DNA of 46,199 bases from Candidatus Daviesbacteria bacterium (GTDB lineage Bacteria > Patescibacteriota > Microgenomatia > Daviesbacterales > UBA10151): positions 1 through 46,199 of the forward strand of contig JACPEX010000027.1 in assembly GCA_016183265.1 (NCBI GenBank). Direction: 5' to 3'. Within the stretch, counting starts at the first letter, position 1; each line of letters starts with the position of its first letter. The translations under genes and the position numbers were made by a program. Of the stretch, positions 1,560-46,199 are shown piece by piece. The notes beneath the pieces are model-generated. The model did no database searches. It saw nothing but the letters and a program-made list of their open reading frames with translations, and was not told where the DNA came from.

Positions 1560-2660
1560 ATGACAAATGAGGAAAAATTTAATTTAATTACCAGAAATTT
1601 AGAGGAAACTCTAACACCGGAAGAATTAAAAGCTCTTTTAGAATCAGGCGCCCCGTTAAAGCATTACATTGGCTTTGAAATCTCCGGCAAAGGCCATGTG
1701 GGTTGGGTTTTTACCATGCAGAAAATCAAAGATTTGCAGGATGCGGGAGTAGAAATAAATATTCTGCTGGCTGACTGGCATACCTGGCTTAATAAAAAAT
1801 TGGATGGCACTTTGGAAACATCCAAAAGAATGGCCAGGGAATATTTTGAACAAGCCCTGAAAGCCTGCGCACTAGCTGCCGGCGCTGATCCAAATAAAAT
1901 GAATTTTGTCTTAGGAAGCGAGCTTTATGATAACCTAGGTTCAAATTATTGGGCGATGATGATTAAGGTGGCAAAAGCTACCACTCTTGCCAGAATGATC
2001 CGCTCCACTACCATCATGGGGCGCAAGGAAAGCGAGATTTCCGATTCAGCCATGCTGATTTATCCGGCCATGCAATCGGCTGATATTTTTGCTTTAAAAG
2101 TCAACATTGCCCAAGCCGGCACTGACCAAAGAAACGTCCATGTGGTGGCCAGAGAGGCGGCCGCAACATTAGGGGAACAAAAACCCGTTGCTATTCATCA
2201 TCATCTGTTGCAAGGTTTAATGCAGCCTGTTTTTACTACTGATGAAAACGGTAAAAAAGTTATGGATTTGGAAGCTGCTAAAATGAGTAAGTCAAAACCT
2301 GATAGCGCTATTTTTATCCACGACAACCCTGATGAAATAAAAAGGAAAATAAATAATGCATATTGCCCGGAAGGGGAAGTAGAGTACAATCCCATCTTAG
2401 ACTGGGCCAAACATCTGATTTTAGCCTCGCAAGGGGACGCCTTGCAAATCCAAAGGCCGGAAAAGTTTGGGGGAAATATAACTTATACTTCTTATGAAGA
2501 TCTGGAAAAAGATTATGCAGATAAAAAGTTGCACCCGATGGATTTAAAAAATGCTGTGGCAGAGTGGTTAATTACCAGACTTGAACCTGCTAGAAAATAT
2601 TTTGAAGATCCTGAAAGAAGAGCCGCCCTTGAAGAGATTGAAAGATTGACAAAAAAATAG
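1560..2660 (+). CDS. tyrS: tyrosyl-tRNA synthetase, archaeal/eukaryal-type
   Basis: 366 aa class I aaRS. KMSKS loop present (AAKMSKSKPDSAIF). The C-terminal RPEKFGGNITYTSYEDLEKDYADKKLHPMDLKNAVAEWLITRLEP closely follows the Methanocaldococcus-type TyrRS sequence as I remember it. Confidence 0.85.
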   Translation: MTNEEKFNLITRNLEETLTPEELKALLESGAPLKHYIGFEISGKGHVGWVFTMQKIKDLQDAGVEINILLADWHTWLNKKLDGTLETSKRMAREYFEQALKACALAAGADPNKMNFVLGSELYDNLGSNYWAMMIKVAKATTLARMIRSTTIMGRKESEISDSAMLIYPAMQSADIFALKVNIAQAGTDQRNVHVVAREAAATLGEQKPVAIHHHLLQGLMQPVFTTDENGKKVMDLEAAKMSKSKPDSAIFIHDNPDEIKRKINNAYCPEGEVEYNPILDWAKHLILASQGDALQIQRPEKFGGNITYTSYEDLEKDYADKKLHPMDLKNAVAEWLITRLEPARKYFEDPERRAALEEIERLTKK

Positions 2661-2843: not shown

Positions 2844-4847
2844 ATGGAACTGCAAACTTCTCTTTCGCAAATTACCGGCATTGGACCGGGGCTACTATAT
2901 AAACTCAAAAGGCTGAATTTAAATACCATAGAGGATTTAATTTATCATTTTCCTTTCAGGTATGATGATTTTTCCAATACTACCTCTGCTTTGGAAGCCC
3001 AGATAGGGGAGACTGTTACCCTGCAAGGGGAAATTTGGTCCATCCAAAACATCTATACCAGGTCCAGGAAAATTATTACCAAGGCTGTATTTAATGACGG
3101 AACTTCACCTATTGAACTTACCTGGTTTAACTCATCCTGGTTAACCAAGCAAATACAAACAGGGGACAGGTTACAGGTTTCAGGAAAAATTACTAAATAT
3201 AAAAACAAAATTTCTATAATTGCCCCCAGATGGGAGAAGGCAGACCACCTGGAAGGAGTCAGGGCCCACCTTCCAGGTGTACATACGGGCAGGTTAGTGC
3301 CGGTTTATCCTGAAACAGAAGGTCTTTCTTCCAAGTGGCTGAGGACCAAAATAGATAAAATCCTCCCGCAAATATTAGACAAACTTCAGGATCCGTTACC
3401 GGATGAAATCAGGAAAAATATGTTGAAATTAAATGAGGCAATCAAAAAAGTTCATTTTCCGGAAAGTTGGGAGCAGGCAGAAAAAGCCCGGGAAAGATTA
3501 GGTTTTGATGAATTATTTTATGTCTCTTTAGCAACACAAAAAGCCAGACTGGAGTGGAAAAACAAACCATTGGTTGAACCCTTAAAAATTAAGCCTTCTG
3601 ATTTAAAAAAGTTTCTAAATAAATTGCCGTTTAAATTGACTAATGCCCAACAAAAAGTCCTTAAAGAAATTTTAGATGATTTAGAAAAGAACCAACCAAT
3701 GAACAGGTTAATTCAGGGTGAAGTTGGCTCAGGGAAAACTGTGGTAGCTGCCATCATCGCCTATTTAGTCCATTTAAATAATTTAAAAACTTTATTTATG
3801 GCCCCTACGGAAATTCTGGCCTTTCAACACTTCGAAACACTTAAAAAACTTGGTATAAATGTGGGAATTTATACAGGCAGTAAAAAAGGGGAAGATGGGG
3901 ATGTTTTCGTAGGCACACATGCATTATTAAATAAGGAAATACAGGATGTAGGTTTAGTTATAATAGATGAACAACAACGTTTTGGAGTGCAACAAAGAAG
4001 CATCTTGCGTTCCAAAGCCAAAGTCCCGCACTTTTTAACTATGACAGCAACACCCATCCCAAGAACCATCGCACTAACTTTATACGGAGATTTGGATATG
4101 TCAGTGATTAACGAACTACCTAAAGGCAGGCAGATTGTTAAAACTTTTGTGGTTCCGGAAAAAAAGCGGCAGGATTCTTATAAATTTATTGCCAAAAAAG
4201 TTAGCGAAGGCGATCAGGCTTATATTATTACCCCCTTAATTGAGGCTTCAGAAACACTCTTGTCAGTAAAGGCTGCCAAAGTGGAATTTGAAAAACTGAA
4301 AAAAATATTTCCCAATTTAAGACTGGATTTACTGCATGGCCGGATGAAAGGCGCAGAAAAAGAAAAAATTATAAAAGATTTCCGCTCGGGCAAAACCCAT
4401 ATCCTGATTTCTACTTCGGTCGTGGAAGTCGGCATGGACAACCCCAATGCTACCATCATGGTTATTGAGGGGGCTGAAAGGTTTGGTTTATCACAATTGC
4501 ACCAGCTTAGGGGCAGGGTAGGCAGGGGAACAAAAGAATCTTTCTGTTTACTATACACATCAAATTCTTCCAAAGATGAACAAAGCAGGTTAAAATATTT
4601 GGAAACTACTTTTGACGGCTTAAAATTGGCTGAGCTGGATTTAAAAATCCGGGGCAGCGGACAAATTTTCGGCATCATGCAATCTGGCAGGTTTGAATTT
4701 AAAATCGCCTCTTTTTCCAATTTAGCACTTCTTGAGAAAACTAAGCAGGAAGCCCAAAAATTATTAAGCGCAGATCCAACTCTTGACAAACATCCCAGGC
4801 TTGCCGCAAAATTACAACAGATTGCATCCGGCGTCATGCCGGACTAG
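2844..4847 (+). CDS. recG: ATP-dependent DNA helicase RecG
   Basis: 667 aa. Walker A GEVGSGKT, DEQQRFG box, QLHQLRGRVGRG motif VI, and an N-terminal wedge/OB-like region. Confidence 0.9.
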   Translation: MELQTSLSQITGIGPGLLYKLKRLNLNTIEDLIYHFPFRYDDFSNTTSALEAQIGETVTLQGEIWSIQNIYTRSRKIITKAVFNDGTSPIELTWFNSSWLTKQIQTGDRLQVSGKITKYKNKISIIAPRWEKADHLEGVRAHLPGVHTGRLVPVYPETEGLSSKWLRTKIDKILPQILDKLQDPLPDEIRKNMLKLNEAIKKVHFPESWEQAEKARERLGFDELFYVSLATQKARLEWKNKPLVEPLKIKPSDLKKFLNKLPFKLTNAQQKVLKEILDDLEKNQPMNRLIQGEVGSGKTVVAAIIAYLVHLNNLKTLFMAPTEILAFQHFETLKKLGINVGIYTGSKKGEDGDVFVGTHALLNKEIQDVGLVIIDEQQRFGVQQRSILRSKAKVPHFLTMTATPIPRTIALTLYGDLDMSVINELPKGRQIVKTFVVPEKKRQDSYKFIAKKVSEGDQAYIITPLIEASETLLSVKAAKVEFEKLKKIFPNLRLDLLHGRMKGAEKEKIIKDFRSGKTHILISTSVVEVGMDNPNATIMVIEGAERFGLSQLHQLRGRVGRGTKESFCLLYTSNSSKDEQSRLKYLETTFDGLKLAELDLKIRGSGQIFGIMQSGRFEFKIASFSNLALLEKTKQEAQKLLSADPTLDKHPRLAAKLQQIASGVMPD

Positions 4848-14145: not shown

Positions 14146-15048
14146 TTATTTGCTAATTTCTCCGGCAGAGAAAATGGCATAGTCAAAATAAGGGGGAACA
14201 ACTTTGAATATCTGAAACAATCTGACTTTTCTTTGTGTTTGCCCTGAAGTCCCTGTAGACTCTAAAATTCTTGCCTGCGGGGTAACAGAACAATCCCGAC
14301 CACACGAATTAACTGCCTGCACAGCAAAAGGTTGGGATGTAGTATTATACAGAAGCCTTGCCCGAAGCAACATCAATCTTGCGTTAGTATCTGTAAGCGA
14401 AAAGTTCAGAATCTTTTTGCATTGATAAGCATTTGCTCCCAGTGCATTTCCTGAACAAGCCGTAACTTTCTCGAATTTATTATCTGGTGATCTTGTAACA
14501 TTATGGTCAAGATACCATTTCTTACTTCTATACTTATTTGTATTAGGATTAACAGGGTCTCCTGAATCCTGCCCGTAATAGATTAATGTCAATTCCAATG
14601 CAGCCTGATCTGTAGCAGAATTACCCCAATAAACATCCAACGTCGACTGTTTGTACCCTTGTGCCGGAGGATTATTCGTATCATTTAAATTGGCAATGAG
14701 CCAAACATGGGCAACCTCTTCTTTAGTTAAAAGAGGATACTCTAATGGATCCTGGCGGGTATTATCAGTTTTAATGGTTGGTAACCAATCATTAGTGCCG
14801 GTAACTATTGCAGTTGCTTGATTATCAAAACTAACACTCCCCGTGCCCCCGCTTAATTTATTCTCTATCCCTGCTTCAGCAGCAGAAAAAGCACGGGAGG
14901 ATTGTTCAACTTTAGTAGAGGTGGAAATATCAGAAAGTGACCGCTGCACCACTGAAATCCCGATTGCCAAAGCCACAGTCATTACCAAAACTAATATTAG
15001 TACAATTTGGCCCGCCTGCCGGACGGGCAGGCCCTTCTCGTCCTTCAT
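14146..15048 (-). CDS. PilX-N-domain minor pilin-like protein
   Basis: 300 aa. GQIVLILVLVMTVALAIGISVVQRS...AFSAAEAGIE resembles the PilX N-terminal domain. Confidence 0.6.
   Translation of the reverse strand: MKDEKGLPVRQAGQIVLILVLVMTVALAIGISVVQRSLSDISTSTKVEQSSRAFSAAEAGIENKLSGGTGSVSFDNQATAIVTGTNDWLPTIKTDNTRQDPLEYPLLTKEEVAHVWLIANLNDTNNPPAQGYKQSTLDVYWGNSATDQAALELTLIYYGQDSGDPVNPNTNKYRSKKWYLDHNVTRSPDNKFEKVTACSGNALGANAYQCKKILNFSLTDTNARLMLLRARLLYNTTSQPFAVQAVNSCGRDCSVTPQARILESTGTSGQTQRKVRLFQIFKVVPPYFDYAIFSAGEISK
15009..15034. repeat. GC-rich hairpin inside a leader-peptide coding region
   Basis: ggcccGCCTGCCggacgGGCAGGCcc is a 7-bp GC stem in otherwise AT-rich DNA. It encodes GLPVRQAG of the 14146..15048 leader. 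Confidence 0.5.
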
Positions 15049-15052
15049 ATAA

Positions 15053-15724
15053 TTATCTTAACCCAATTGTGGTCTGAAATGTAACTGGATCAATTTGACT
15101 GGTAATTGCAGAAGAAGCACTAACCCCCGGTTTTAAATTAAACTTAATTGTAACTTGATCCTTGGCTCCCGCGGGTTTATCTCTGGTAAAGACTGGCGGG
15201 GGGTTTATACTGCAATCAGACGCAGGACATTCCACTGAAACCCCTGACTGTTCATTAGTATCAGTCAAGACAGTAGGATTAACCATTGGATCGGTACAAA
15301 CGCTGTTAATAAATGATTGGATATCTGTCGGAGCAGGGGTAGGTGAATTTTGGGCACAAGGAGTAGACGGATCCGGTTGTGGGTTATCTTGTTGAATTTG
15401 ACCATTTTGAGTTGGACTTGGAACTATAAATTTGTATCTGGTATAACAGCCGTTTTTTACGATCACCAAAGTATTGGAAGGATTTCCTAGTGTTGGACAT
15501 ATTACATTATCCGAATTTCTAACATTTTTATCCATAGTCTCCAAAACTGCCTGGCCGTTTTGTTTGATCACAGCCAATATTTGTGATTTATTGCTGCCTC
15601 TTAAAGTATTAGTAAAAATCACCACCAATATTGCCCCCACAATAGAAGTAATCGCCATTACTACCAGTATTTCAGCCAAGGTAAATGCACTAGAATTTTT
15701 ATTAAAGCCTGATTCTTGATTCAT
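15053..15724 (-). CDS. prepilin-type minor pilin
   Basis: 223 aa. Leader MNQESGFNKNSSA then FTLAEILVVMAITSIVGAIL. The first codons (aatcaagaatca) are a partial copy of the ttcttga/gaatcaa heptamer family. Confidence 0.7.
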   Translation of the reverse strand: MNQESGFNKNSSAFTLAEILVVMAITSIVGAILVVIFTNTLRGSNKSQILAVIKQNGQAVLETMDKNVRNSDNVICPTLGNPSNTLVIVKNGCYTRYKFIVPSPTQNGQIQQDNPQPDPSTPCAQNSPTPAPTDIQSFINSVCTDPMVNPTVLTDTNEQSGVSVECPASDCSINPPPVFTRDKPAGAKDQVTIKFNLKPGVSASSAITSQIDPVTFQTTIGLR

Positions 15725-15729
15725 AATTC

Positions 15730-16353
15730 TTACAGCTTTCTTAGTATTGTTGTCAATTTTGATTCATGGTCCCCGGCAAAGTCTGTCCAGGTCACTATGA
15801 CTGTAACTTTTTTTTGGGTAGTATAGCTAGTAGAATCATCAGATAAAATAACTACCCGTTTAAAATTAGGCGGTATTAATTGTGAACCATTTACAGGAAA
15901 AGACGATCCATTTATAAAATAATTCAAGACCCCCGTATCTGCGATATTAAAATAACAATTGGGGTTCAGTTGATTACTACAAGCAGAATTTATTTGATAA
16001 GTCCAGATAGATCCGGTACCAACACAACTAGTATCGCTGCTATTACCATTCCATGAATTTACATTTGTTAATCCAGTAATACATTCATTCCTATCCCTGC
16101 CAGCCCTGACCCTTTCTATTCCTTCCTGGGCCAACTTTGTAGCCTGGGCGCTGTTTTTGGCAAAGCTGGCATTCCTTAAAGAGAAAATAGTGGCAAAAGT
16201 CAAAGCTGTCACCACCAAAATCCCGACCGCCGCAGCTACAATAACTTCTATTAAAGACTGCCCCTGTTCAGAATTAAGAATTAAGCGGTAAGAATTAAGC
16301 TTAAAAAGCTTCATTCTTGATTCTTGATTCTTAATTCTCATATTATTGCGCAT
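15730..16353 (-). CDS. prepilin-type minor pilin with an unusually long, repeat-encoded leader
   Basis: The mature part starts at QSLIEVIVAAAVGILVV after ...NSEQG. The ORF track starts at 16374. ATG at 16353 follows a strong SD (AAGGAGGGAGG) and is my preferred start. Alternative starts are 16341 and 16314. Confidence 0.65.
   Translation of the reverse strand: MRNNMRIKNQESRMKLFKLNSYRLILNSEQGQSLIEVIVAAAVGILVVTALTFATIFSLRNASFAKNSAQATKLAQEGIERVRAGRDRNECITGLTNVNSWNGNSSDTSCVGTGSIWTYQINSACSNQLNPNCYFNIADTGVLNYFINGSSFPVNGSQLIPPNFKRVVILSDDSTSYTTQKKVTVIVTWTDFAGDHESKLTTILRKL
16271..16337. repeat. 31-bp imperfect heptamer-periodic hairpin (gaattaa / ttcttga units) within the leader-peptide coding region
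   Basis: gaattaagaattaagcggtaagaattaagctt aaaa agcttcattcttgattcttgattcttaattc. The arms are complementary with about one mismatch per 7-mer. Confidence 0.7.
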
Positions 16354-21909: not shown

Positions 21910-21940
21910 TTACACCCCAAGGGTGTAATCGGAGGTTTAC
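21910..21940. repeat. REP1 hairpin copy 1 (ACACCC-caa-GGGTGT core)
   Basis: ttacaccccaagggtgtaatcggaggtttac. Confidence 0.8.
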
Positions 21941-21970: not shown

Positions 21971-22687
21971 ATGCCTTCAAGAATACACCCACTAGTCAAT
22001 GGAGAGTATTACCATATCTTCAACAGGGGCGTCGACAAGATGGATATTTTTAAAAACTCATACAACTTTCAAAGATTTTTGAAAACTATGCTTTATTATC
22101 AAATACTTGGGCCAAAACCCAGATTTTCTCTGTTTACGCCTACTAATGATTTATTGGACAAAAGCAAAAAGATTATTGAAATTGTTTGTTACTGTCTAAT
22201 GCCAAACCATTTCCACTTCCTTGTTAAACAATTAATTGATGGCGGCATAACTGAATTTATCAGCAAATTAAGCAACAGTTATACTAAATATTTCAATATT
22301 AAGCATAAAAGAGTAGGACCCCTTCTGCAGGGTGAGTTCAAATCAGTGTTAATGGAAAGCAATGAGCAATTATTACATCTTAGCCGATACATCCACTTAA
22401 ATCCCTTAGTTTCGGATTTGGTAAAAGACTTAAGCGATTATCGCTGGTCATCTTATCCAGAATATATCCGGCTAAACACCCAAAAAATCTGTGCCAAAGA
22501 GATTATCTTAGATCAGTTCAAATCACCAAAGGATTACCAGAAATTTATTTTAAATCATGCAGATTATGGCAGGGAGCTGGAAATTATTAAACACCAACTA
22601 ATAGAAGAGTATGACCTCCGATTACACCCCAAGGGTGTAATCGGAGGTTTACAGATCAAACCCCCAACTTTAAATACCAATCCATAA
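21971..22687 (+). CDS. REP-associated tyrosine transposase (RAYT; HUH/Y1, IS200-like fold)
   Basis: 238 aa. YHIFNRGV, HUH motif MPNHFHFLV, catalytic-Tyr motif LSRYIHLNPL. The 3' end (LRLHPKGVIGGLQ) is read through REP1 copy 2 and overlaps the convergent pilD end. Confidence 0.8.
   Translation: MPSRIHPLVNGEYYHIFNRGVDKMDIFKNSYNFQRFLKTMLYYQILGPKPRFSLFTPTNDLLDKSKKIIEIVCYCLMPNHFHFLVKQLIDGGITEFISKLSNSYTKYFNIKHKRVGPLLQGEFKSVLMESNEQLLHLSRYIHLNPLVSDLVKDLSDYRWSSYPEYIRLNTQKICAKEIILDQFKSPKDYQKFILNHADYGRELEIIKHQLIEEYDLRLHPKGVIGGLQIKPPTLNTNP
22615..22652. repeat. REP1 hairpin copy 2 (full 15-bp perfect stem)
   Basis: CCTCCGATTACACCC caa GGGTGTAATCGGAGG followed by tttac. Confidence 0.85.
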
Positions 22688-30723: not shown

Positions 30724-30753
30724 CCCACCCTCCAGGTGGATTAGCTTGACACC
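30724..30753. repeat. REP2 hairpin copy (CCACC-ctcca-GGTGG core with the extended arm on the right side)
   Basis: cccaccctccaggtggattagcttgacacc. The right flank is the reverse complement of the ggtgccaagctaat flank seen at 42529 and 43289. Confidence 0.7.
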
Positions 30754-30801: not shown

Positions 30802-32050
30802 ATGTCTAAAAAAATTCATTTTTTAGGAATTGGGGGGAGCGGGGCGTCGGCAGTAGCGGCAATAGCCGAAGCCCAGGGTTTTAAAATCACAGGATGTGAT
30901 TTAGAGCCCAATAACGAATTTACAACACAATTTAATAGTTTACTTGTAGGTCATGATCCTAGCCACTTAACAAATATTGATATTTTGGCAACCACTCCTG
31001 CCATTTTTTCTTTAGACCCAAATAACCCAGAATTAGTCGCTGCTAAAGAAAAGGGTATTCCAGTGATGACTTGGCAGCAATTTTTAGGGGAATACTTGGT
31101 TAAGGGCAAATTTGTGATAGCCGTTGCCGGCACTCATGGAAAATCAACCACCACTGCCATGATTGCCCAACTTTTAGAGGATGCCAGATTAGACCCAACA
31201 GTCGAACTAGGAGCAATTGTGCCAAAATGGGGCTCAAATTATCGAATTGGCAAAAGTAAATATCTTGTGGTAGAAGCAGATGAATTCAATGATAATTTTT
31301 TGCATTTAAAACCGGATATTACCGTTGTTACTAATATTGAAATGGATCACCCTGAATATTTTAAGGATTTTGAGGCAGTTAAAAGTAGTTTTAAAAAGTT
31401 TTTACTGCAAACAAAAAGCACCATCATTGCAAATTTGGCAGATCCTGGAGTAAAACAAACTTTAGTCTTACACCCCAAGGGTGTAAATATAACTATTGAT
31501 TATTCAAAACATCTCATAGATTTTCCATTACAAATCCCCGGGCAATTTAATATCTTAAATTCCTCTGCCGTTTTTCAAGTAGGACTAATTTTAGGAATTG
31601 ATCCTGCTGTTATTAAAGAGAGCTTACAAAATTATAAGGGGGTTGGCAGAAGGTTTGAGTATATTGGGGAATATAATGGAGCCAAAGTTTATTCTGATTT
31701 TGGTCACCACCCCACAGAAATTGAAGTTACCATTAATGCAGCCAGGGAAAAATTTCCCAATCAAAAAATCATCATGGTCTACCAACCGCATATGTTTTCA
31801 AGGACCAAGGCTTTATTTGCTGATTTTGTGAAGGTTTTCCAAAACCTGCCGGCTGATAAAATATTTATCATTGATATTTATCCTTCCAGGGAAATAGATA
31901 CCGGTCAATCGACCTTCAGTTTTATATGCGGGATCTGCTACAAAAACTTTAGAAAAAATTAAACCGGAAATAAAACCAGGAGATATTGTTTTCTTTATGA
32001 GCGCAGGAGATACAGATAAATTAGCTAAAGAGCTCGTCACAGCGAAGTAA
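30802..32050 (+). CDS. murC: UDP-N-acetylmuramate--L-alanine ligase MurC, interrupted by a +1 frame change near 31898-31935
   Basis: GIGGSGASAVA and the P-loop AGTHGKSTTTAM. Frame 1 ends at 31962 in non-MurC sequence (QSTFSFICGICYKNFRKN*). The next frame reads VNRPSVLYAGSATKTLEKIKPEIKPGDIVFFMSAGDTDKLAKELVTAK* (stop 32048-32050), which is a typical MurC C-terminus. Confidence 0.8.
31468..31486. repeat. REP1 hairpin copy 3, in frame inside murC
   Basis: ttacaccccaagggtgtaa encodes LHPKGV. Confidence 0.7.
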
Positions 32051-38450: not shown

Positions 38451-39007
38451 TGACAAAGATTGCTAAAAAAGTAGATCCTCGTTCACTAGAAACTCAGAAA
38501 ATTATTAAAATAATGTTCCAGACGGCTTACGGAGAACAGAAGGGTAGAAATAAACCAATTATGGTTGGGCTGGCCGCGCCACAAATTGGAATTTTTAAAA
38601 GAATTATTTTAGTAGATGTAAAAGCTGATGGCAAAGGCAAAACAGGAGACTTAAGAGTTTATATAAACCCGGAAATTATTTGGTCTTCCAAAAGAGAAGG
38701 GGAGTGGTATGAGGGTTGTTATTCAACAGGCAGAATCTGCGGAATTGTTTCCCGCCCGATAACTATTAAAATCAAAACATTTACGATGACACCCCAAGGG
38801 TGTAATCGAGAGTTTAGAAAATACTCAGATTATGTGGCCAGGATTTTTCAGCATGAGATTGATCACCTAGATGGCAAAATTTTTACTGACCACATTAAAA
38901 ATCCGGATCATCTACATTGGGTGGAAGAAAAAGAATTCCCCTTATATAGAAATAAAGAAGCTTGGCGAAATTGGCCCAAAAAAGCTTCTTTGAATATGGT
39001 AAAATAG
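38450..39007 (+). CDS. def: peptide deformylase
   Basis: 185 aa. GLAAPQIG, EGCYS and QHEIDHLDG are the three deformylase motifs. Confidence 0.85.
   Translation: MTKIAKKVDPRSLETQKIIKIMFQTAYGEQKGRNKPIMVGLAAPQIGIFKRIILVDVKADGKGKTGDLRVYINPEIIWSSKREGEWYEGCYSTGRICGIVSRPITIKIKTFTMTPQGCNREFRKYSDYVARIFQHEIDHLDGKIFTDHIKNPDHLHWVEEKEFPLYRNKEAWRNWPKKASLNMVK
38789..38816. repeat. REP1 hairpin copy 4, in frame inside def
   Basis: acaccccaagggtgtaatcgagagttta (26/28 identical to copy 1) encodes TPQGCNREF, between deformylase motifs 2 and 3. Confidence 0.7.
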
Positions 39008-42497: not shown

Positions 42498-42528
42498 AAA
42501 TTTTTAAACAAATACCATAAAAAGAGTA

Positions 42529-42572
42529 GGTGCCAAGCTAATCCACCCTCCAGGTGGAAACACATTGACACC
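42529..42572. repeat. REP2 hairpin copy (extended)
   Basis: ggtgccaagctaatccaccctccaggtggaaacacattgacacc. Outer ggtgccaa / ttgacacc arms pair with one mismatch. Confidence 0.75.
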
Positions 42573-42599
42573 TTTACTTATTTATTCTATTTTTAGGAT

Positions 42600-43274
42600 A
42601 TGCCCACTAATAGAAAATTAGTCTTTGCAAATGATGAAATTTACCATGTATTTAATAGAGGAGTCGAGAAAAGACCAATTTTTACAGATAAACGCGAATA
42701 CAAAAGGGCACTGCTCGCATTAGACTTCTACCGATTTACCAGCCCTCCTGTTAAATTATCAAAATTTCTTATTATTCCTAAAGATCAACAGGAAAAATTC
42801 CTGGAAAATATAAAAAAAGAATTTGAGAAACTTGTAGAAATAATCTGCTACTGTTTAATGCCAAATCATTTTCATTTTCTGCTTAAGCAGAAAATGGATA
42901 ACGGCATTTCAACTTTTATCTCAAATCTCACCAATAGCTATACCAGATACTTTAATACAAAGCATGAACGCATTGGCCCGCTTCTTGAAGGAATATTTAA
43001 AGCCGTAAGAATAGAGTCAGAGGAACAGCTTATGCACACATCAAGATACATACATTTAAATCCAGTTTCCTCATTCTTAATTGAACCTGAAGAATTAGAT
43101 AATTATGAGTGGTCATCTTACCCTGAATTTTTGGGGCATTCAGATAAAAATTTTGTCACCAAAGACCTCATACTAAATTTCTTCCCCTCAATAGCTGCCT
43201 ACAAAAAGTTTGTTTTAGATCAAGTAGACTATGCAAGGCAATTAGAGCTAATCAAGCATTTAACTCTGGAATAA
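42600..43274 (+). CDS. REP-associated tyrosine transposase (RAYT; HUH/Y1), second paralog
   Basis: 224 aa. YHVFNRGV, MPNHFHFLL and TSRYIHLNPV, collinear with 21971..22687. Confidence 0.8.
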   Translation: MPTNRKLVFANDEIYHVFNRGVEKRPIFTDKREYKRALLALDFYRFTSPPVKLSKFLIIPKDQQEKFLENIKKEFEKLVEIICYCLMPNHFHFLLKQKMDNGISTFISNLTNSYTRYFNTKHERIGPLLEGIFKAVRIESEEQLMHTSRYIHLNPVSSFLIEPEELDNYEWSSYPEFLGHSDKNFVTKDLILNFFPSIAAYKKFVLDQVDYARQLELIKHLTLE

Positions 43275-43288
43275 AGTAAAAAAGGACA

Positions 43289-43318
43289 GGTGCCAAGCTA
43301 GTCCACCCTCCAGGTGGG
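43289..43318. repeat. REP2 hairpin copy
   Basis: ggtgccaagctagtccaccctccaggtggg. Confidence 0.75.
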
Positions 43319-43323
43319 AATGA

Positions 43324-43599
43324 TTATTTACTTCCCAGGAATTTTTGGACAAAGTCGTTTAGGTAATTTGACAACCGGGCAATGATAAAGGCTGAAAGAA
43401 GAAATTCCCAAAAAGGGCTCCTGATTTCTATCCCTAAAAAGACATTAAACAAACTTACCCCAAAACCAAAAGTTAATAAAATTGCCGTGGCTAAAGACAA
43501 AAGGGGAAGATAAGGCTTCATCACTTGCACACTTCCCACCAAATATTCTATTAAAGCCTCATTTAACACAGTCAGGATAAAAACCACCAACCAGTTCAT
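43324..43599 (-). CDS. small 3-TM membrane protein (holin-like topology, family not established)
   Basis: 91 aa, three hydrophobic helices and a charged C-terminus. Start overlaps the upstream ORF stop. Confidence 0.4.
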   Translation of the reverse strand: MNWLVVFILTVLNEALIEYLVGSVQVMKPYLPLLSLATAILLTFGFGVSLFNVFLGIEIRSPFWEFLLSAFIIARLSNYLNDFVQKFLGSK

Positions 43600-43850
43600 A
43601 CTGCCTTTCCGGGCAGGAAAACATATTGGTAAAGCTTAATGAAAGCGCCTACTATTGTCAATGTCTCATCCTTTTTCACCTCCCAGGAGCCAGGGCTCAC
43701 CTGGGAGGTGTTTTCTTTTAATTTTGCAATTTCCTGATCTCGTTCCTGCAGCGCTTCCCGTAAAATTATCACTTGTTGGTTTAATGTGGCCAAAGTTGTT
43801 TGAAAATTTTCTACTTCAGGTTTTGGAGAATTAAAAACTATCTCTGACAT
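43596..43850 (-). CDS. small coiled-coil protein
   Basis: 84 aa. LATLNQQVIILREALQERDQEIAKLKEN looks like heptad-repeat coiled coil. It is 39 nt downstream of the ATPase gene. Confidence 0.35.
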   Translation of the reverse strand: MSEIVFNSPKPEVENFQTTLATLNQQVIILREALQERDQEIAKLKENTSQVSPGSWEVKKDETLTIVGAFIKLYQYVFLPGKAV

Positions 43851-43889: not shown

Positions 43890-46199
43890 CTATAAAAACA
43901 ATGACCTTAAGGGAGGGTATGTTAAGATCAAAAGCTGGATTAATAAAACTGCTGCCACCGAAAAAAAGAGTTTTTTATTGGATAAAACCCCGTGATGCCT
44001 CCTCATAATAAAGGGCAGAATCATCTGCGCAATAACCATACCGGAAAAAATTGTGGCTCTCGCTGTCTCCAAACCCAAGGATTGTAAAGTCAGATAGAAG
44101 GCAAAAAGCAAAAGAGTTGCTATTAAAATACCCCCAAATATAATAAAACGTAAAGACTGGTAATTAAATATTGTCAGCTTTTTACGGGGCGGGGTTTGCA
44201 TCAAATGAGCTGAGGCGCTGTCAAATCCCAAAGCTAGCGCAGGCGGTCCGTCTGTCACAAAATTAATCCACAAGATTTGGATAGGCAGCAGGGGAGTAGG
44301 CAAGCCAAAAACCGCTCCACCTAAAATTAACAACATCTCCGACAAGTTCCCGGTCAGCAAAAACCTAATCACTTTTAAAATATTACTGTAAATTAACCTG
44401 CCTTGTTCAACAGCAGTCACCAAGGTAGCAAAATTATCATCCAGCAAAATAATATCCGAGGCTTCTTTGGCTACATCAGTGCCGATTTTACCCATAGATA
44501 CCCCTACCTCTGCCTGTTTTAAAGCCAAAGCATCATTTACCCCGTCACCTGTCACTGCCACCACTTCTCCCAAGCTTTGATACGCTTTGACAATCCTGAG
44601 CTTGTCCTGGGGAGTAATCCTGGCAAAAATCCGTACACGTCCAATCCTTTGCAAAAATTCTTCCTCATCCAAACTATTTAATTGAGCGCCGGTTAACACT
44701 TCATCACCGGGGGATAAAAGGCCAACTTTTTCACCAACTGCTTTGGCTGTTAGTTCATTATCCCCGGTGACCATCACCACTTTAATACCTGCATTTTTAG
44801 TAAGCCTGATTGCATCTTTGACTTCCGGCCGTATCTCATCAGCAATGCCAATCAAGCCTAAAAATTTATCATCTCGGGAAAAGGCCAAAACCCTCAAACC
44901 TTTGGCAGCCATTTTCTTATATTCTTGCTCCCATTTACTTTGCAAAGCAAAAACTTCCGGGGCGCCTTTTTGGTATTTTGATTTTTTACCGCCTTGCTCC
45001 CAAGTAGTAGTCATCTTTCTGGCTTCAAGATTAAAGGGAATCTCTTCAATTAACTTGAGCTCAGATCGCATCAGGTCAATATCTATCCCCTCATCTTTTG
45101 CCCAAAGAAGCAAAGCTCCTTCAGTAGAATCCCCTAAAACATCAAAATTATCTCCACCTCGAAGGTGCAACCGCATTTCTTCACCTTCGAGGTGTGTCTC
45201 TTTCAACACCAGAGAAGCACTGTTGCAAAGCACTGCGCACTTTATTAAATCAGCTTTTTTGGAATCTTCCGACTTTATTTCTTGCACCCTCATTTCATTT
45301 TTGGTTAAAGTCCCGGTTTTATCTGTACAAATCACTGTGGCCGCCCCCAAAGATTCAACTGCAATCATTTTTCGAACCAAAGCTTTTCTTTTGTACATCC
45401 GGCGCATGCCCATGGCCAAAATTATAGTCACAAAAGCCGGCAAACCTTCCGGCACCACTGCCACCATAAAAGCAATGCTGCCCAAAAGGGTAGCGGATAG
45501 GTCATATCCCTGCAGCGTTCTTAAGATAAAAATTACAGCTGCTGCTAACAATGCGATAATCCCAAGTATCCTGCTTAAACCTGCCAAAGTTTTTTCAAAA
45601 GGAGTTTGTTCGCCTTCAACCGCAGCTAACTTTTCGGCCAAATTTCCAAATTTAGTATTAATCCCTGTTTGCAAAACTAAAAACTTACCCCGCCCGGAAA
45701 CTACAGTAGTGGCAAAAAAAACTAAATTCTCCTCCGTCTTAGTAGATTTTTGCACAGGTAAAGATTCACCGGTTAAGATTGCTTCATTAATCTGTAAAGT
45801 ATGCGCTTCTACCAGCTGTCCGTCTGCCGGGATTTTATCGCCTGATTCTAAAATGACCACATCACCCGGGACAAGTTCGGTTGCCGGAATCTGGACTTGC
45901 TTACCATCCCTTTCCACCCTGGCAAATGCTACTTCCAGTTTTCGAAGCGCCTCCAGCTCTTTGGAGGCTTTGTATTCCTGCCAAAAACCTAACAGGGTGT
46001 TTAAAACTAAAATGCCGCCGATCAAAAAACTGTCTAGCTTATCACCAACAATAAATGACAAAACTGTGGCGCCCAGCAAAAGAAAGGAGAAGGGATTTTT
46101 TACCTGCCCGGCCAGCATCTCTAAAACAGAAGTAGTTTTCTTCTCCGGCAGCTTATTTAAACCATACTTTTTTAAAGCCTCTTTAGCCTGATGGGAAGT
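43890..46199 (-). CDS. P-type cation-transporting ATPase (Ca2+/Mg2+ type, P2-like); 5' end leaves the window
   Basis: LTGESLP, phosphorylation motif CTDKTGTLT, and the VTGDGVNDALALKQA hinge. The frame stays open upstream of the listed Met 46118 (TSHQAKEALKKYGLNKLPEKKTTSVLE MLAGQVKNPF, a Cation_ATPase_N pattern), so the true start lies beyond 46199. Confidence 0.9.
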   Translation of the reverse strand, partial: TSHQAKEALKKYGLNKLPEKKTTSVLEMLAGQVKNPFSFLLLGATVLSFIVGDKLDSFLIGGILVLNTLLGFWQEYKASKELEALRKLEVAFARVERDGKQVQIPATELVPGDVVILESGDKIPADGQLVEAHTLQINEAILTGESLPVQKSTKTEENLVFFATTVVSGRGKFLVLQTGINTKFGNLAEKLAAVEGEQTPFEKTLAGLSRILGIIALLAAAVIFILRTLQGYDLSATLLGSIAFMVAVVPEGLPAFVTIILAMGMRRMYKRKALVRKMIAVESLGAATVICTDKTGTLTKNEMRVQEIKSEDSKKADLIKCAVLCNSASLVLKETHLEGEEMRLHLRGGDNFDVLGDSTEGALLLWAKDEGIDIDLMRSELKLIEEIPFNLEARKMTTTWEQGGKKSKYQKGAPEVFALQSKWEQEYKKMAAKGLRVLAFSRDDKFLGLIGIADEIRPEVKDAIRLTKNAGIKVVMVTGDNELTAKAVGEKVGLLSPGDEVLTGAQLNSLDEEEFLQRIGRVRIFARITPQDKLRIVKAYQSLGEVVAVTGDGVNDALALKQAEVGVSMGKIGTDVAKEASDIILLDDNFATLVTAVEQGRLIYSNILKVIRFLLTGNLSEMLLILGGAVFGLPTPLLPIQILWINFVTDGPPALALGFDSASAHLMQTPPRKKLTIFNYQSLRFIIFGGILIATLLLFAFYLTLQSLGLETARATIFSGMVIAQMILPFIMRRHHGVLSNKKLFFSVAAVLLIQLLILTYPPLRSLFL

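Follow-up and report, generated by a model that had tools for sequence, protein, structure and literature searches.

RAYT2 is the designation used here for a gene coding for a Y1/HUH transposase-like protein of 224 amino acids, which is located at positions 42600..43274 (+ strand) of a 46,199-nucleotide contig from a Candidatus Daviesbacteria bacterium (JACPEX010000027.1, assembly GCA_016183265.1). This contig was analysed over its whole length and is referred to as the window. The gene is flanked by copies of a short palindrome of the repetitive extragenic palindromic (REP) type, designated REP2. RAYT2 and REP2 probably form a unit of the REPtron/TIRtron type, in which a resident, vertically inherited gene for a class 2 Y1 HUH endonuclease is associated with its cognate palindrome. 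To our knowledge, REPs and REP-associated tyrosine transposases (RAYTs) have been studied almost exclusively in large proteobacterial genomes with repeats in the hundreds. In the Candidatus Daviesbacteria genome of about 0.7-0.8 Mb, the same logic is present with many paralogs and very few repeats for each of them.

The genome under study, G000, is represented by an assembly of 675 kb in 39 contigs (39% GC, 84% complete), in which the window is contig C39. The names of near-identical database proteins also assign it to Candidatus Daviesbacteria. The family was surveyed in 41 genomes of the class, which are identified by G-numbers, and 78 paralogous and orthologous loci drawn from 12 genomes were used for the protein tree and for the comparison of loci. 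Eleven orthologous or closely related RAYT2 loci were fetched with their flanks, and residue conservation was judged on an alignment of 13 sequences.

The RAYT2 protein and its genomic position

RAYT2 is a class 2 TnpA-Y1 protein, and thus a RAYT in the broad sense, with an intact catalytic core and a Y1 fold. The reading frame is open and intact and contains the sequences MPNHFHFLL and SRYIHLNP. The HUH motif is formed by N89-H90-F91-H92, and the catalytic tyrosine is Y150 in YIHLNP. In the alignment, H90, H92 and Y150 are invariant, as are S172 and S173 of the WSSY motif in the tail, and N154 and P155 are conserved to at least 90%. The tyrosine motif is of the form Y---NP, which is the signature of class 2 TnpA-Y1 proteins (PMC6006769). 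The protein matched the Pfam family Y1_Tnp with an E-value of 6e-8 and a score of 33.3 bits, compared to a gathering cut-off of 23. A search of the PDB with the single sequence gave nothing meaningful, and a profile search identified only ISDra2 TnpA (E 0.003, around the HUH motif), so that a route via the structure was required. The AlphaFold2 model (pLDDT 77, pTM 0.79) has the order beta-alpha-beta-beta-alpha-beta-alpha of Y1 transposases, with the tyrosine on the helix of residues 141-157 and a helical C-terminal tail (residues 163-223) modelled at lower confidence. With this model, Foldseek ranked first 4ER8, the E. coli TnpA-REP with a bound REP hairpin (E 6.8e-6, TM 0.70 on the target), followed by the TnpA proteins of IS608 and ISDra2.

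At the position of the W-motif, RAYT2 has PL(L/F)(E/Q)G-FK, with FQ in several orthologs. Together with NHFH, YIHLNP, WSSY and the length of 224 amino acids, this corresponds to the motifs of TnpA-Y1 subclass 2.1, an assignment made by inspection of motifs against Table 1 of PMC6006769 and not with the hidden Markov models of its authors. No Pfam match to a C-terminal domain like Bac_DnaA_C, HTH_23 or HTH_28 was obtained with either the full protein or the isolated tail, even when E-values as high as 10 were allowed.

RAYT2 is chromosomally resident, vertically inherited and under purifying selection rather than mobile. Orthologs with 66-87% identity were identified at the same locus, between gyrA and an ATPase gene, in seven other genomes. 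The gene order gyrA-orf69-(orf78)-RAYT2-orf91-orf84-ATPase is found in G015, G012, G009, G014, G002 and G006, all of the same genus, and in G024, from another genus of the same family, some of these loci spanning only one side of the neighbourhood. The dN/dS values of RAYT2 against its orthologs range from 0.04 to 0.10. This combination of conserved locus and selection argues against an active insertion sequence (IS) and fits the behaviour of RAYTs, which have been described as domesticated and vertically inherited (PMC5581495). Between G000 and G015, pS at synonymous sites has reached 0.51, and nevertheless the upstream hairpin is identical in 41 of 45 nucleotides and the downstream one in 29 of 31 (manual count), which points to selection on the repeat itself.

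REP2 and its arrangement around the gene

REP2 occurs three times in the window. Copy 1 (42529..42572, + strand) is two-armed, with the left arm GGTGCCAAGCTAATC, the core CCACC-CTCCA-GGTGG at 42543-42557 and the right arm AAACACA-TTGACACC at 42558-42572. The middle part of the latter is degenerate and its end is TTGACACC, so that the copy reads GGTGG-AAACACA-TTGACACC from 42553 to 42572. It folds into a two-tier hairpin, in which an outer stem GGTGCCAA/TTGACACC is separated by an internal loop from the core CCACC/GGTGG, with folding energies of -8.9 kcal/mol for the + strand and -10.8 kcal/mol for the - strand. On its 5' side, copy 1 is preceded by the A-rich flank AAAAAGAGTA (42519..42528, + strand), a direct repeat which recurs before copy 2 and is also present in the orthologs of G015, G012 and G007 and at dispersed copies of G012. 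Copy 2 (43279..43317, + strand) consists of the A-rich flank, the left arm and the core, without the right arm. The core stem of this copy has 5 bp and -4.7 kcal/mol, and the stop codon of a convergent gene lies at 43324, 6 nt beyond it. A counterpart of copy 2 is located downstream of every syntenic ortholog. Copy 3 (30725..30753, + strand), CCACC-CTCCA-GGTGG-ATTAGC-TTGACACC, has the core and the right arm only; the stop codon of gyrB is just to its left, a T-rich run comes after it, and murC is the gene on the other side.

The original prediction, made from the window alone, had described RAYT2 as bracketed by GGTGCCAAGCTA(A/G)TCCACCCTCCAGGTGG, and both the coordinates and the sequence were found as given. 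The core 15-mer CCACCCTCCAGGTGG occurs exactly at 30725, 42543 and 43303, always on the + strand, with a chance expectation of 0.03. The 19-nt arm GGTGCCAAGCTARTCCACC was found at 42529 (+), at 43289 (+) and, with one mismatch, at 30735-30753 (-), where 0.01 occurrences would be expected by chance. The third copy therefore has the same core and loop with the long arm on the opposite side, as had been proposed. The copies on the two sides of the gene are direct repeats of 42 nt with 88% identity (42519-42560 and 43279-43320). The description is to be corrected in that copy 1 already carries a right arm.

When the right arm of copy 3 is combined with the left arm found in copies 1 and 2, 18 of 19 positions pair, the exception being arm position 5 with a C.A mismatch. 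The potential extended hairpin of 19 bp that had been deduced from these copies was recovered in this form, and two-armed REP2 elements of exactly this design exist in relatives, as overlapping + and - matches in G024 and G039 and in an intergenic position in G012. The combined consensus of about 43 nt is 5'-GGTGCCAAGCTAATC CACC CTCCA GGTG GATTAGCTTGACACC-3', and is longer when the flanking A-run and T-run are included; often the element is extended by the A-run AAAAAGAGTA on one side and by its complement TACTCTTTTT on the other. The full REP2 is characterized by an asymmetric loop and by the C.A mismatch of its outer stem, which is conserved for the most part. The asymmetry between arm and loop is partly systematic, since GGTGCCAA is associated with CTCCA and GGTGTCAA with TGGAG (19:9 versus 2:8, p 0.02). 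No Rfam family matched anywhere in the window at the gathering threshold, and REP2 is therefore not a known structured RNA. A fragment of a tRNA or an attachment site was also considered as its origin and rejected, the element being palindromic and specific for a clade of the gene; nothing pointed to a tRNA, though no tRNA scan was run.

The arms around RAYT2 are inverted, with the right arm TTGACACC upstream and the left arm GGTGCCAA downstream. Because the upstream copy also has a right arm, the gene is flanked in a manner like that of a REPtron or TIRtron. The same layout is seen in the 11 related loci, where the upstream element consists of the core and a right arm, whose terminal TTGACAC(C/A) is situated about 30 nt upstream of the ATG, and the downstream element of the left arm and the core. 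The core loop is direct around RAYT2 (CTCCA on both sides), direct in some orthologs and inverted in others. Among the flanks of the ortholog loci L003-L012, exact reverse complements of the 5-nt loop are frequent (CTCCA/TGGAG, TTCCA/TGGAA) with the arms unchanged, which corresponds to very small inversions inside the hairpin.

The right arm of copy 1 also contains part of a promoter-like site. A promoter scan identified a sigma-70-like sequence at 42565..42593 (+ strand) with 10 of 12 matches, composed of TTGACA, a spacer of 17 nt and TATTTT. The -35 box (TTGACA, 42565) is part of the right arm of REP2, and 6 nt separate the end of the -10 box from the ATG at 42600. Of the 78 loci, 57 have TTGACA at a distance of 30-50 nt upstream of the start codon, 52 of them at 35-39 nt, compared to 2 of 78 for a control window; a -10-like hexamer is also present in 45 loci. 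The site is a candidate promoter of RAYT2, and the position of the -10 box would imply a leaderless or near-leaderless mRNA. With the A-run and T-run at its sides, REP2 may further act as a bidirectional terminator, and some copies look like bidirectional terminator or promoter modules.

Hairpin families, copy number and alternative explanations

G000 encodes seven paralogs with 33-55% identity to RAYT2. For RAYT1, encoded at 21971..22687 (+ strand), a resemblance to RAYT2 with the same HUH and tyrosine motifs had been noticed by eye, and this was borne out by 47% identity (E 2e-65) and the invariant catalytic residues. RAYT1 has its own REP1 hairpins at 21910-21936 and 22614-22648, with solo copies at 31468-31486 and 38787-38805. 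Hairpin repeats in direct orientation on both sides were identified for RAYT1 and for the paralogs on contigs C26 and C28, and the flanks of the C20 paralog share the same hairpin core and loop with long arms on opposite sides. The C1 paralog has a clear downstream hairpin, the upstream one being found only by an automatic scan, and the C4 paralog, with an inverted but imperfect flank repeat, is the sole one without a clear private hairpin. The family is present in 33 of the 41 genomes, with up to 13 copies per genome of about 1 Mb, and at least 7,900 clusters of a large protein database reach an E-value of 1e-5 or lower. The coexistence of two cognate pairs had been proposed for this region. 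RAYT2 is indeed a distinct, intact paralog with its own palindrome, but the number of such paralogs in the genome is larger than two.

The hairpin type tracks the clade of the RAYT protein. In the tree of 78 proteins, RAYT1 and RAYT2 belong to different well-supported clades, and orthologs in other genomes mostly keep the same hairpin as the clade member. All orthologs in the RAYT1 clade have TTACACCC-CAA-GGGTGTAA. In the RAYT2 clade, CCACC-CTCCA-GGTGG or close variants are found, on both sides in most of the syntenic orthologs, most of its sister clade has CACCC-TCC-GGGTG, and a separate deep clade with the C28 and C1 paralogs has hairpins of the AAGG-GGACG-CCTT type. Hairpin labels on the tree required 31 changes compared to 37-42 in 200 shuffles; this test was restricted to 49 loci because imperfect stems or cut flanks defeated the automatic pairing at 29 of the 78. 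Across the 41 genomes, the exact REP2 15-mer was detected in 14, with 1-8 occurrences in each, and the reversed pattern, used as specificity control, in none. All 11 genomes that encode a CTCCA-type RAYT have it, compared to 3 of the 30 others (Fisher p 1e-7), and when only copies outside the RAYT flanks are counted, the numbers are 8 of 11 and 3 of 30 (p 2e-4). The specific pairing of hairpin and transposase that had been predicted is supported by these distributions. REP2 can, however, not be called unrelated to REP1, as had been thought: most of the hairpin families have a CACC-N5-GGTG core and a GGTGYCAA arm in common, and the core is shared by both, so that REP1 and REP2 are diverged members of one superfamily.

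Some further hairpins of G000 were seen beside these families. REP2 and the family of the C20 type are a single loop base apart. Seven copies of CCACC-CCCCA-GGTGG with the arm GGTGNCAAT (C2 6257, C11 3295, C13 5247, C28 3499, 4946 and 32030, C34 28845) have no cognate RAYT in the 84%-complete genome, and a RAYT with this hairpin is present in G039 (L044). The palindrome GCAAGGGGACGCCTTGC is abundant, with one copy in the window (2427-2446) and many others on C1, C2, C7, C28 and C37, and matches the hairpins beside the deep-branching paralogs of C28 (both sides) and C1 (downstream). In the C1 paralog (C1 6140-6799), YIHKQALALQGDALQHG stands in place of the YIHxNP of the others, and the sequence immediately preceding the start codes for a similar peptide, ALQGVPLQH; this suggests that a copy of its own palindrome was inserted in frame at the tyrosine motif, and the paralog may be inactivated. 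Another RAYT paralog, with the hairpin CCGATC-CCG-GATCGG, is 99.7% identical over more than 1 kb between G012 (L014, C8:3620-4876) and G018 (L022, C1:696846-698102). The identity extends past the hairpins and beyond the fetched region, although other orthologs of these two species-level genomes are clearly diverged. A larger segment may have been exchanged horizontally in recent times, or the identity may be an artefact of binning.

The genome-wide counts and the history of single copies bear on whether the unit is active. G000 contains six copies of REP1, about 5-7 of the other hairpin families and three of REP2. At the gyrB-murC site, REP2 is also found about 60 nt before murC in G018, G012 and G011, and in five other species (G007, G004, G001, G015 and G003) murC follows gyrB almost directly and the junction lacks a REP; from this comparison the copy is taken as an old insertion. 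Its orientation is flipped in G000 (CTCCA with TTGACACC) relative to G018, G012 and G011 (TGGAG with TTGGCACC). In G012, a two-armed REP2 lies between two genes which in G000 (C8, near 9365) are separated by an intergenic gap of 11 nt. This was the one clean intergenic filled/empty pair obtained when 12 dispersed copies of G012 and G009 were mapped onto G000. The site on C20 is a decayed relic, two copies fall on C4 in apparently conserved coding sequence, and the rest were unmappable or rearranged. The C4 site (15703-15730) has a REP2-like arm and core between conserved, apparently coding flanks (...GGAKLFHLEGG...) and is also present in G012 (L095) and G009 (L102); its loop is CGGAG in G000 and TGGAG in G012 and G009, with a second hairpin in G012. 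Taken together, the sites that are filled in some genomes and empty in others and the flipped orientations are indirect signs of past mobility, as expected of occasional insertion, loss and flipping. They do not bear out the view of an active partnership, given that two of the three REP2 copies are the gene's own flanks, that the gene has kept its place across the genus and that the third copy is old and common to three other species. Degeneracy of RAYT2 and confinement of REP2 to three copies had been named beforehand as what would speak against the pair: the repeat is indeed confined to these three copies in the 84%-complete assembly of G000, and the gene is not degenerate, its catalytic residues being intact.

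Several observations weigh against a REPtron/TIRtron-type unit. Three copies are far fewer than in classical REP/REPIN families, and no REPIN doublet of REP2 was identified in G000. The insertion between gyrB and murC comprises not only REP2 but about 45 extra nucleotides. The GTAG foot tag (canonical 5' GT[AG]G) is present in G000 at copy 1 only (42526-42529), with ACAG at copy 2 and AGAG at copy 3; it is also found at some orthologous upstream copies, but only AG|GTG is constant. RAYT2 missed the cut-off of 80 bits of the NCBIfam equivalog NF047646 (REP_Tyr_transpos) with 45.6 bits, as did RAYT1 with 48.7, and its motifs are those of a subclass reported to lack an association with REPs (PMC6006769).

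Three other explanations were considered. RAYT2 might be an autonomous, possibly fossilised, IS of the IS200/IS605 type, with the same-strand hairpins as left and right subterminal ends of a 0.8-kb unit moving by single-strand peel-and-paste. The direct orientation of the flanking cores and loops on the strand of the gene, which recalls the IS608 geometry with one-strand subterminal hairpins at both ends, and the resemblance of the HUH/Y1 fold to the TnpA proteins of IS608 and ISDra2 are in its favour. It is nevertheless a very improbable explanation: the gene is single-copy, with no near-identical copies and with other paralogs of only 33-55% identity; it occupies the same locus in seven other genomes, one of them in another genus, and is under strong purifying selection; the protein is longer and has Y---NP of class 2 instead of the Y---Q of IS200 transposases (PMC6006769); neither tnpB nor a neighbour of its size is present; and solo hairpins occur without the gene. 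Chance matches or a chimeric contig might be suspected with just three copies on a single contig of a metagenome assembly of 39 contigs. With 0.01-0.03 matches expected, the same arrangement of gene and hairpin in independent genomes and the reversed pattern absent from all 41 genomes, this is refuted for practical purposes.

It is unlikely that the hairpins are mainly cis-regulatory, serving as operator and promoter upstream and as terminators downstream and at other genes, while the Y1 protein is a domesticated factor binding single-stranded DNA or hairpins in a role other than transposition, and dispersed copies arose by recombination or gene conversion. This would account for the constant spacing of hairpin and TTGACA from the start codon in all clades, for the A-run/hairpin/T-run symmetry like that of a bidirectional terminator, for the very low copy number and for long-term residency under purifying selection. 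It is less readily reconciled with the strict retention of HUH and tyrosine in 13 of 13 aligned proteins, and with the comparison of orthologous sites, where the two-armed unit of about 43 nt is either wholly there or wholly missing. Moreover, hairpin families are specific for protein clades, which a generic terminator does not need to be, and the core stem of copy 2 would be weak as a terminator.

For a REPtron/TIRtron-type unit, a mechanism can be proposed by analogy to TnpA-REP (PMC3479197) and IS608 TnpA. RAYT2 would bind the REP2 hairpin when extruded on single-stranded DNA, and would discriminate it by the loop, the upper stem, the stem asymmetries and the C.A mismatch. The HUH-bound metal and Tyr150 would then cut and rejoin the DNA beside the foot of the hairpin, which could occasionally result in copying, moving or flipping of REP2 units. 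Such activity would have to be rare in this lineage, with 3 copies in G000 and 1-8 in relatives.

Comparison to known systems and further palindromes

Among known systems, the E. coli TnpA-REP/REP-BIME REPtron (subclass 2.2, Bertels Group 2) shares with RAYT2 the Y1 HUH fold, with 4ER8 as best structural match, and Y---NP. In both cases a single resident, vertically inherited gene is associated with a cognate palindrome with inverted arms and with solo intergenic copies. The sequence identity to the E. coli protein is, however, only 12%, and RAYT2 has 224 amino acids with a helical tail and WSSY, compared to 165 amino acids. Further differences are the GTAG tag, which is not conserved for RAYT2, the loop, which is often flipped relative to the arms, and the repeat number, with three copies instead of hundreds and no REPIN or BIME arrays of REP2. 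Canonical REPtrons of subclasses 2.2, 2.4 and 2.5 likewise have tens to hundreds of dispersed REPs.

TnpA-Y1 subclass 2.1 (Quentin et al. 2018, PMC6006769) corresponds to Bertels Group 1 (2017, PMC5581495) and largely to the TIRYTs (Di Nocera et al. 2013, PMC3733652). Its members are described as flanked by terminal inverted repeats (TIRs) with the consensus GGGGWSAS and as not associated with REPs (PMC6006769, PMC3733652); RAYT-like genes flanked by moderately repeated TIRs are thus already known (PMC3733652). RAYT2 resembles the second motif row of this group in NH[YF]H, the FQ-type W-motif, Y[IV]HLNP, the SS tail and the length, which is about 238 amino acids for the subclass. As in TIRtrons, inverted terminal arms are located at a fixed distance from the coding sequence, the tip of the REP2 arm (GGTGYCAA) resembles the TIR consensus, with agreement at 5-6 of 8 positions, and the low to moderate repeat number is like that of Group 1, where flanking 16-mers occur about 12 times per replicon. 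Here, in contrast, each arm abuts a clade-specific GC hairpin which is also dispersed as solo copies, no HTH/Bac_DnaA_C-like C-terminal Pfam domain is present, and the host is a member of the Microgenomates within the candidate phyla radiation (CPR) with up to 13 paralogs per genome of about 1 Mb, compared to a mean of about 1.9 in the subclass. The published distinction between REP-associated RAYTs and TIR-associated TIRYTs is blurred by this system.

Multiple cognate pairs of RAYTs and REPINs or REPs in one genome have been described for Pseudomonas fluorescens SBW25 and Stenotrophomonas maltophilia (PMC3116915, PMC3686654). There, too, divergent paralogs coexist, each with its own repeat family, and gene and repeat co-evolve. 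Those RAYTs belong to Groups 2 and 3 and are accompanied by tens to hundreds of REPINs in genomes of 6-7 Mb, whereas here 7 pairs with 3-7 copies each are present in about 0.7-0.8 Mb, and what distinguishes the families is mostly the loop and the upper stem on a common CACC-N5-GGTG scaffold. In the literature searched, no paper was found that connects REP, RAYT or IS200 with CPR, Patescibacteria or Microgenomates. Notable in the present case are the CPR host, a subclass-2.1-like protein with hairpins, the very low repeat number, the many paralogs per Mb and the promoter-like site embedded in the repeat. Annotation pipelines label these proteins only as 'transposase'. Dozens of related pairs of gene and hairpin, differing mainly in a loop of 3-5 nt and the top of the stem, provide a comparative data set for the reading of hairpins by Y1 HUH proteins.

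A more far-reaching proposal is put forward tentatively. In Microgenomates, a subclass-2.1-like Y1 HUH family, which has been described elsewhere as devoid of REPs, might have diversified to as many as 13 divergent paralogs per genome of about 1 Mb, all of them maintained by vertical descent and each co-diversified with a private hairpin on a CACC-N5-GGTG/TTGACACC scaffold that also bears the leaderless promoter of the gene. If this were true, the family would amount to a natural collection of orthogonal pairs for the recognition of hairpins by HUH proteins. It would then also point to a role at the level of the host in ultra-small genomes, for example by mobile terminator or promoter cassettes, in-frame palindromes in genes or flipping of hairpins, and not to plain selfish spread.

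Other palindromes were identified in or near genes of the window, in which the GC skew follows the gene strand and gives no replication direction. In the P-type ATPase open reading frame (ORF) at 43890-46118, a 40-nt palindrome at 45155-45194 (- strand) is composed of two inverted CACCT-CGA-AGGTG hairpins, is in frame and encodes HLEGEEMRLHLRG. It resembles an insertion of a REPIN-like doublet into a coding loop, and the same hairpin type flanks RAYT paralogs elsewhere (L008, L027, L037). A family of 34-nt palindromes, CACCTnnnAGG-AGyCArGGCyCA-CCTnnnAGGTG, is represented at 3246-3279 in the ORF 2844-4847, where it reads HLEGVRAHLPG, and at 43677-43710 in an ORF of 84 amino acids on the - strand, both copies thus being inside ORFs. 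Additional copies are located on C27 (about 8353) and C28 (about 14574), and the variable triplet covaries on both sides (GGA/TCC, CCC/GGG, CGA/TCG). A GC-rich palindrome family, CCTGCC(T/G)GCCGG(C/A)(A/C)GGCAGG, has one member at 15007-15031 of the window, in the region of a prepilin gene, where it may be translated, and others on C7, C13, C15, C16 and C36.

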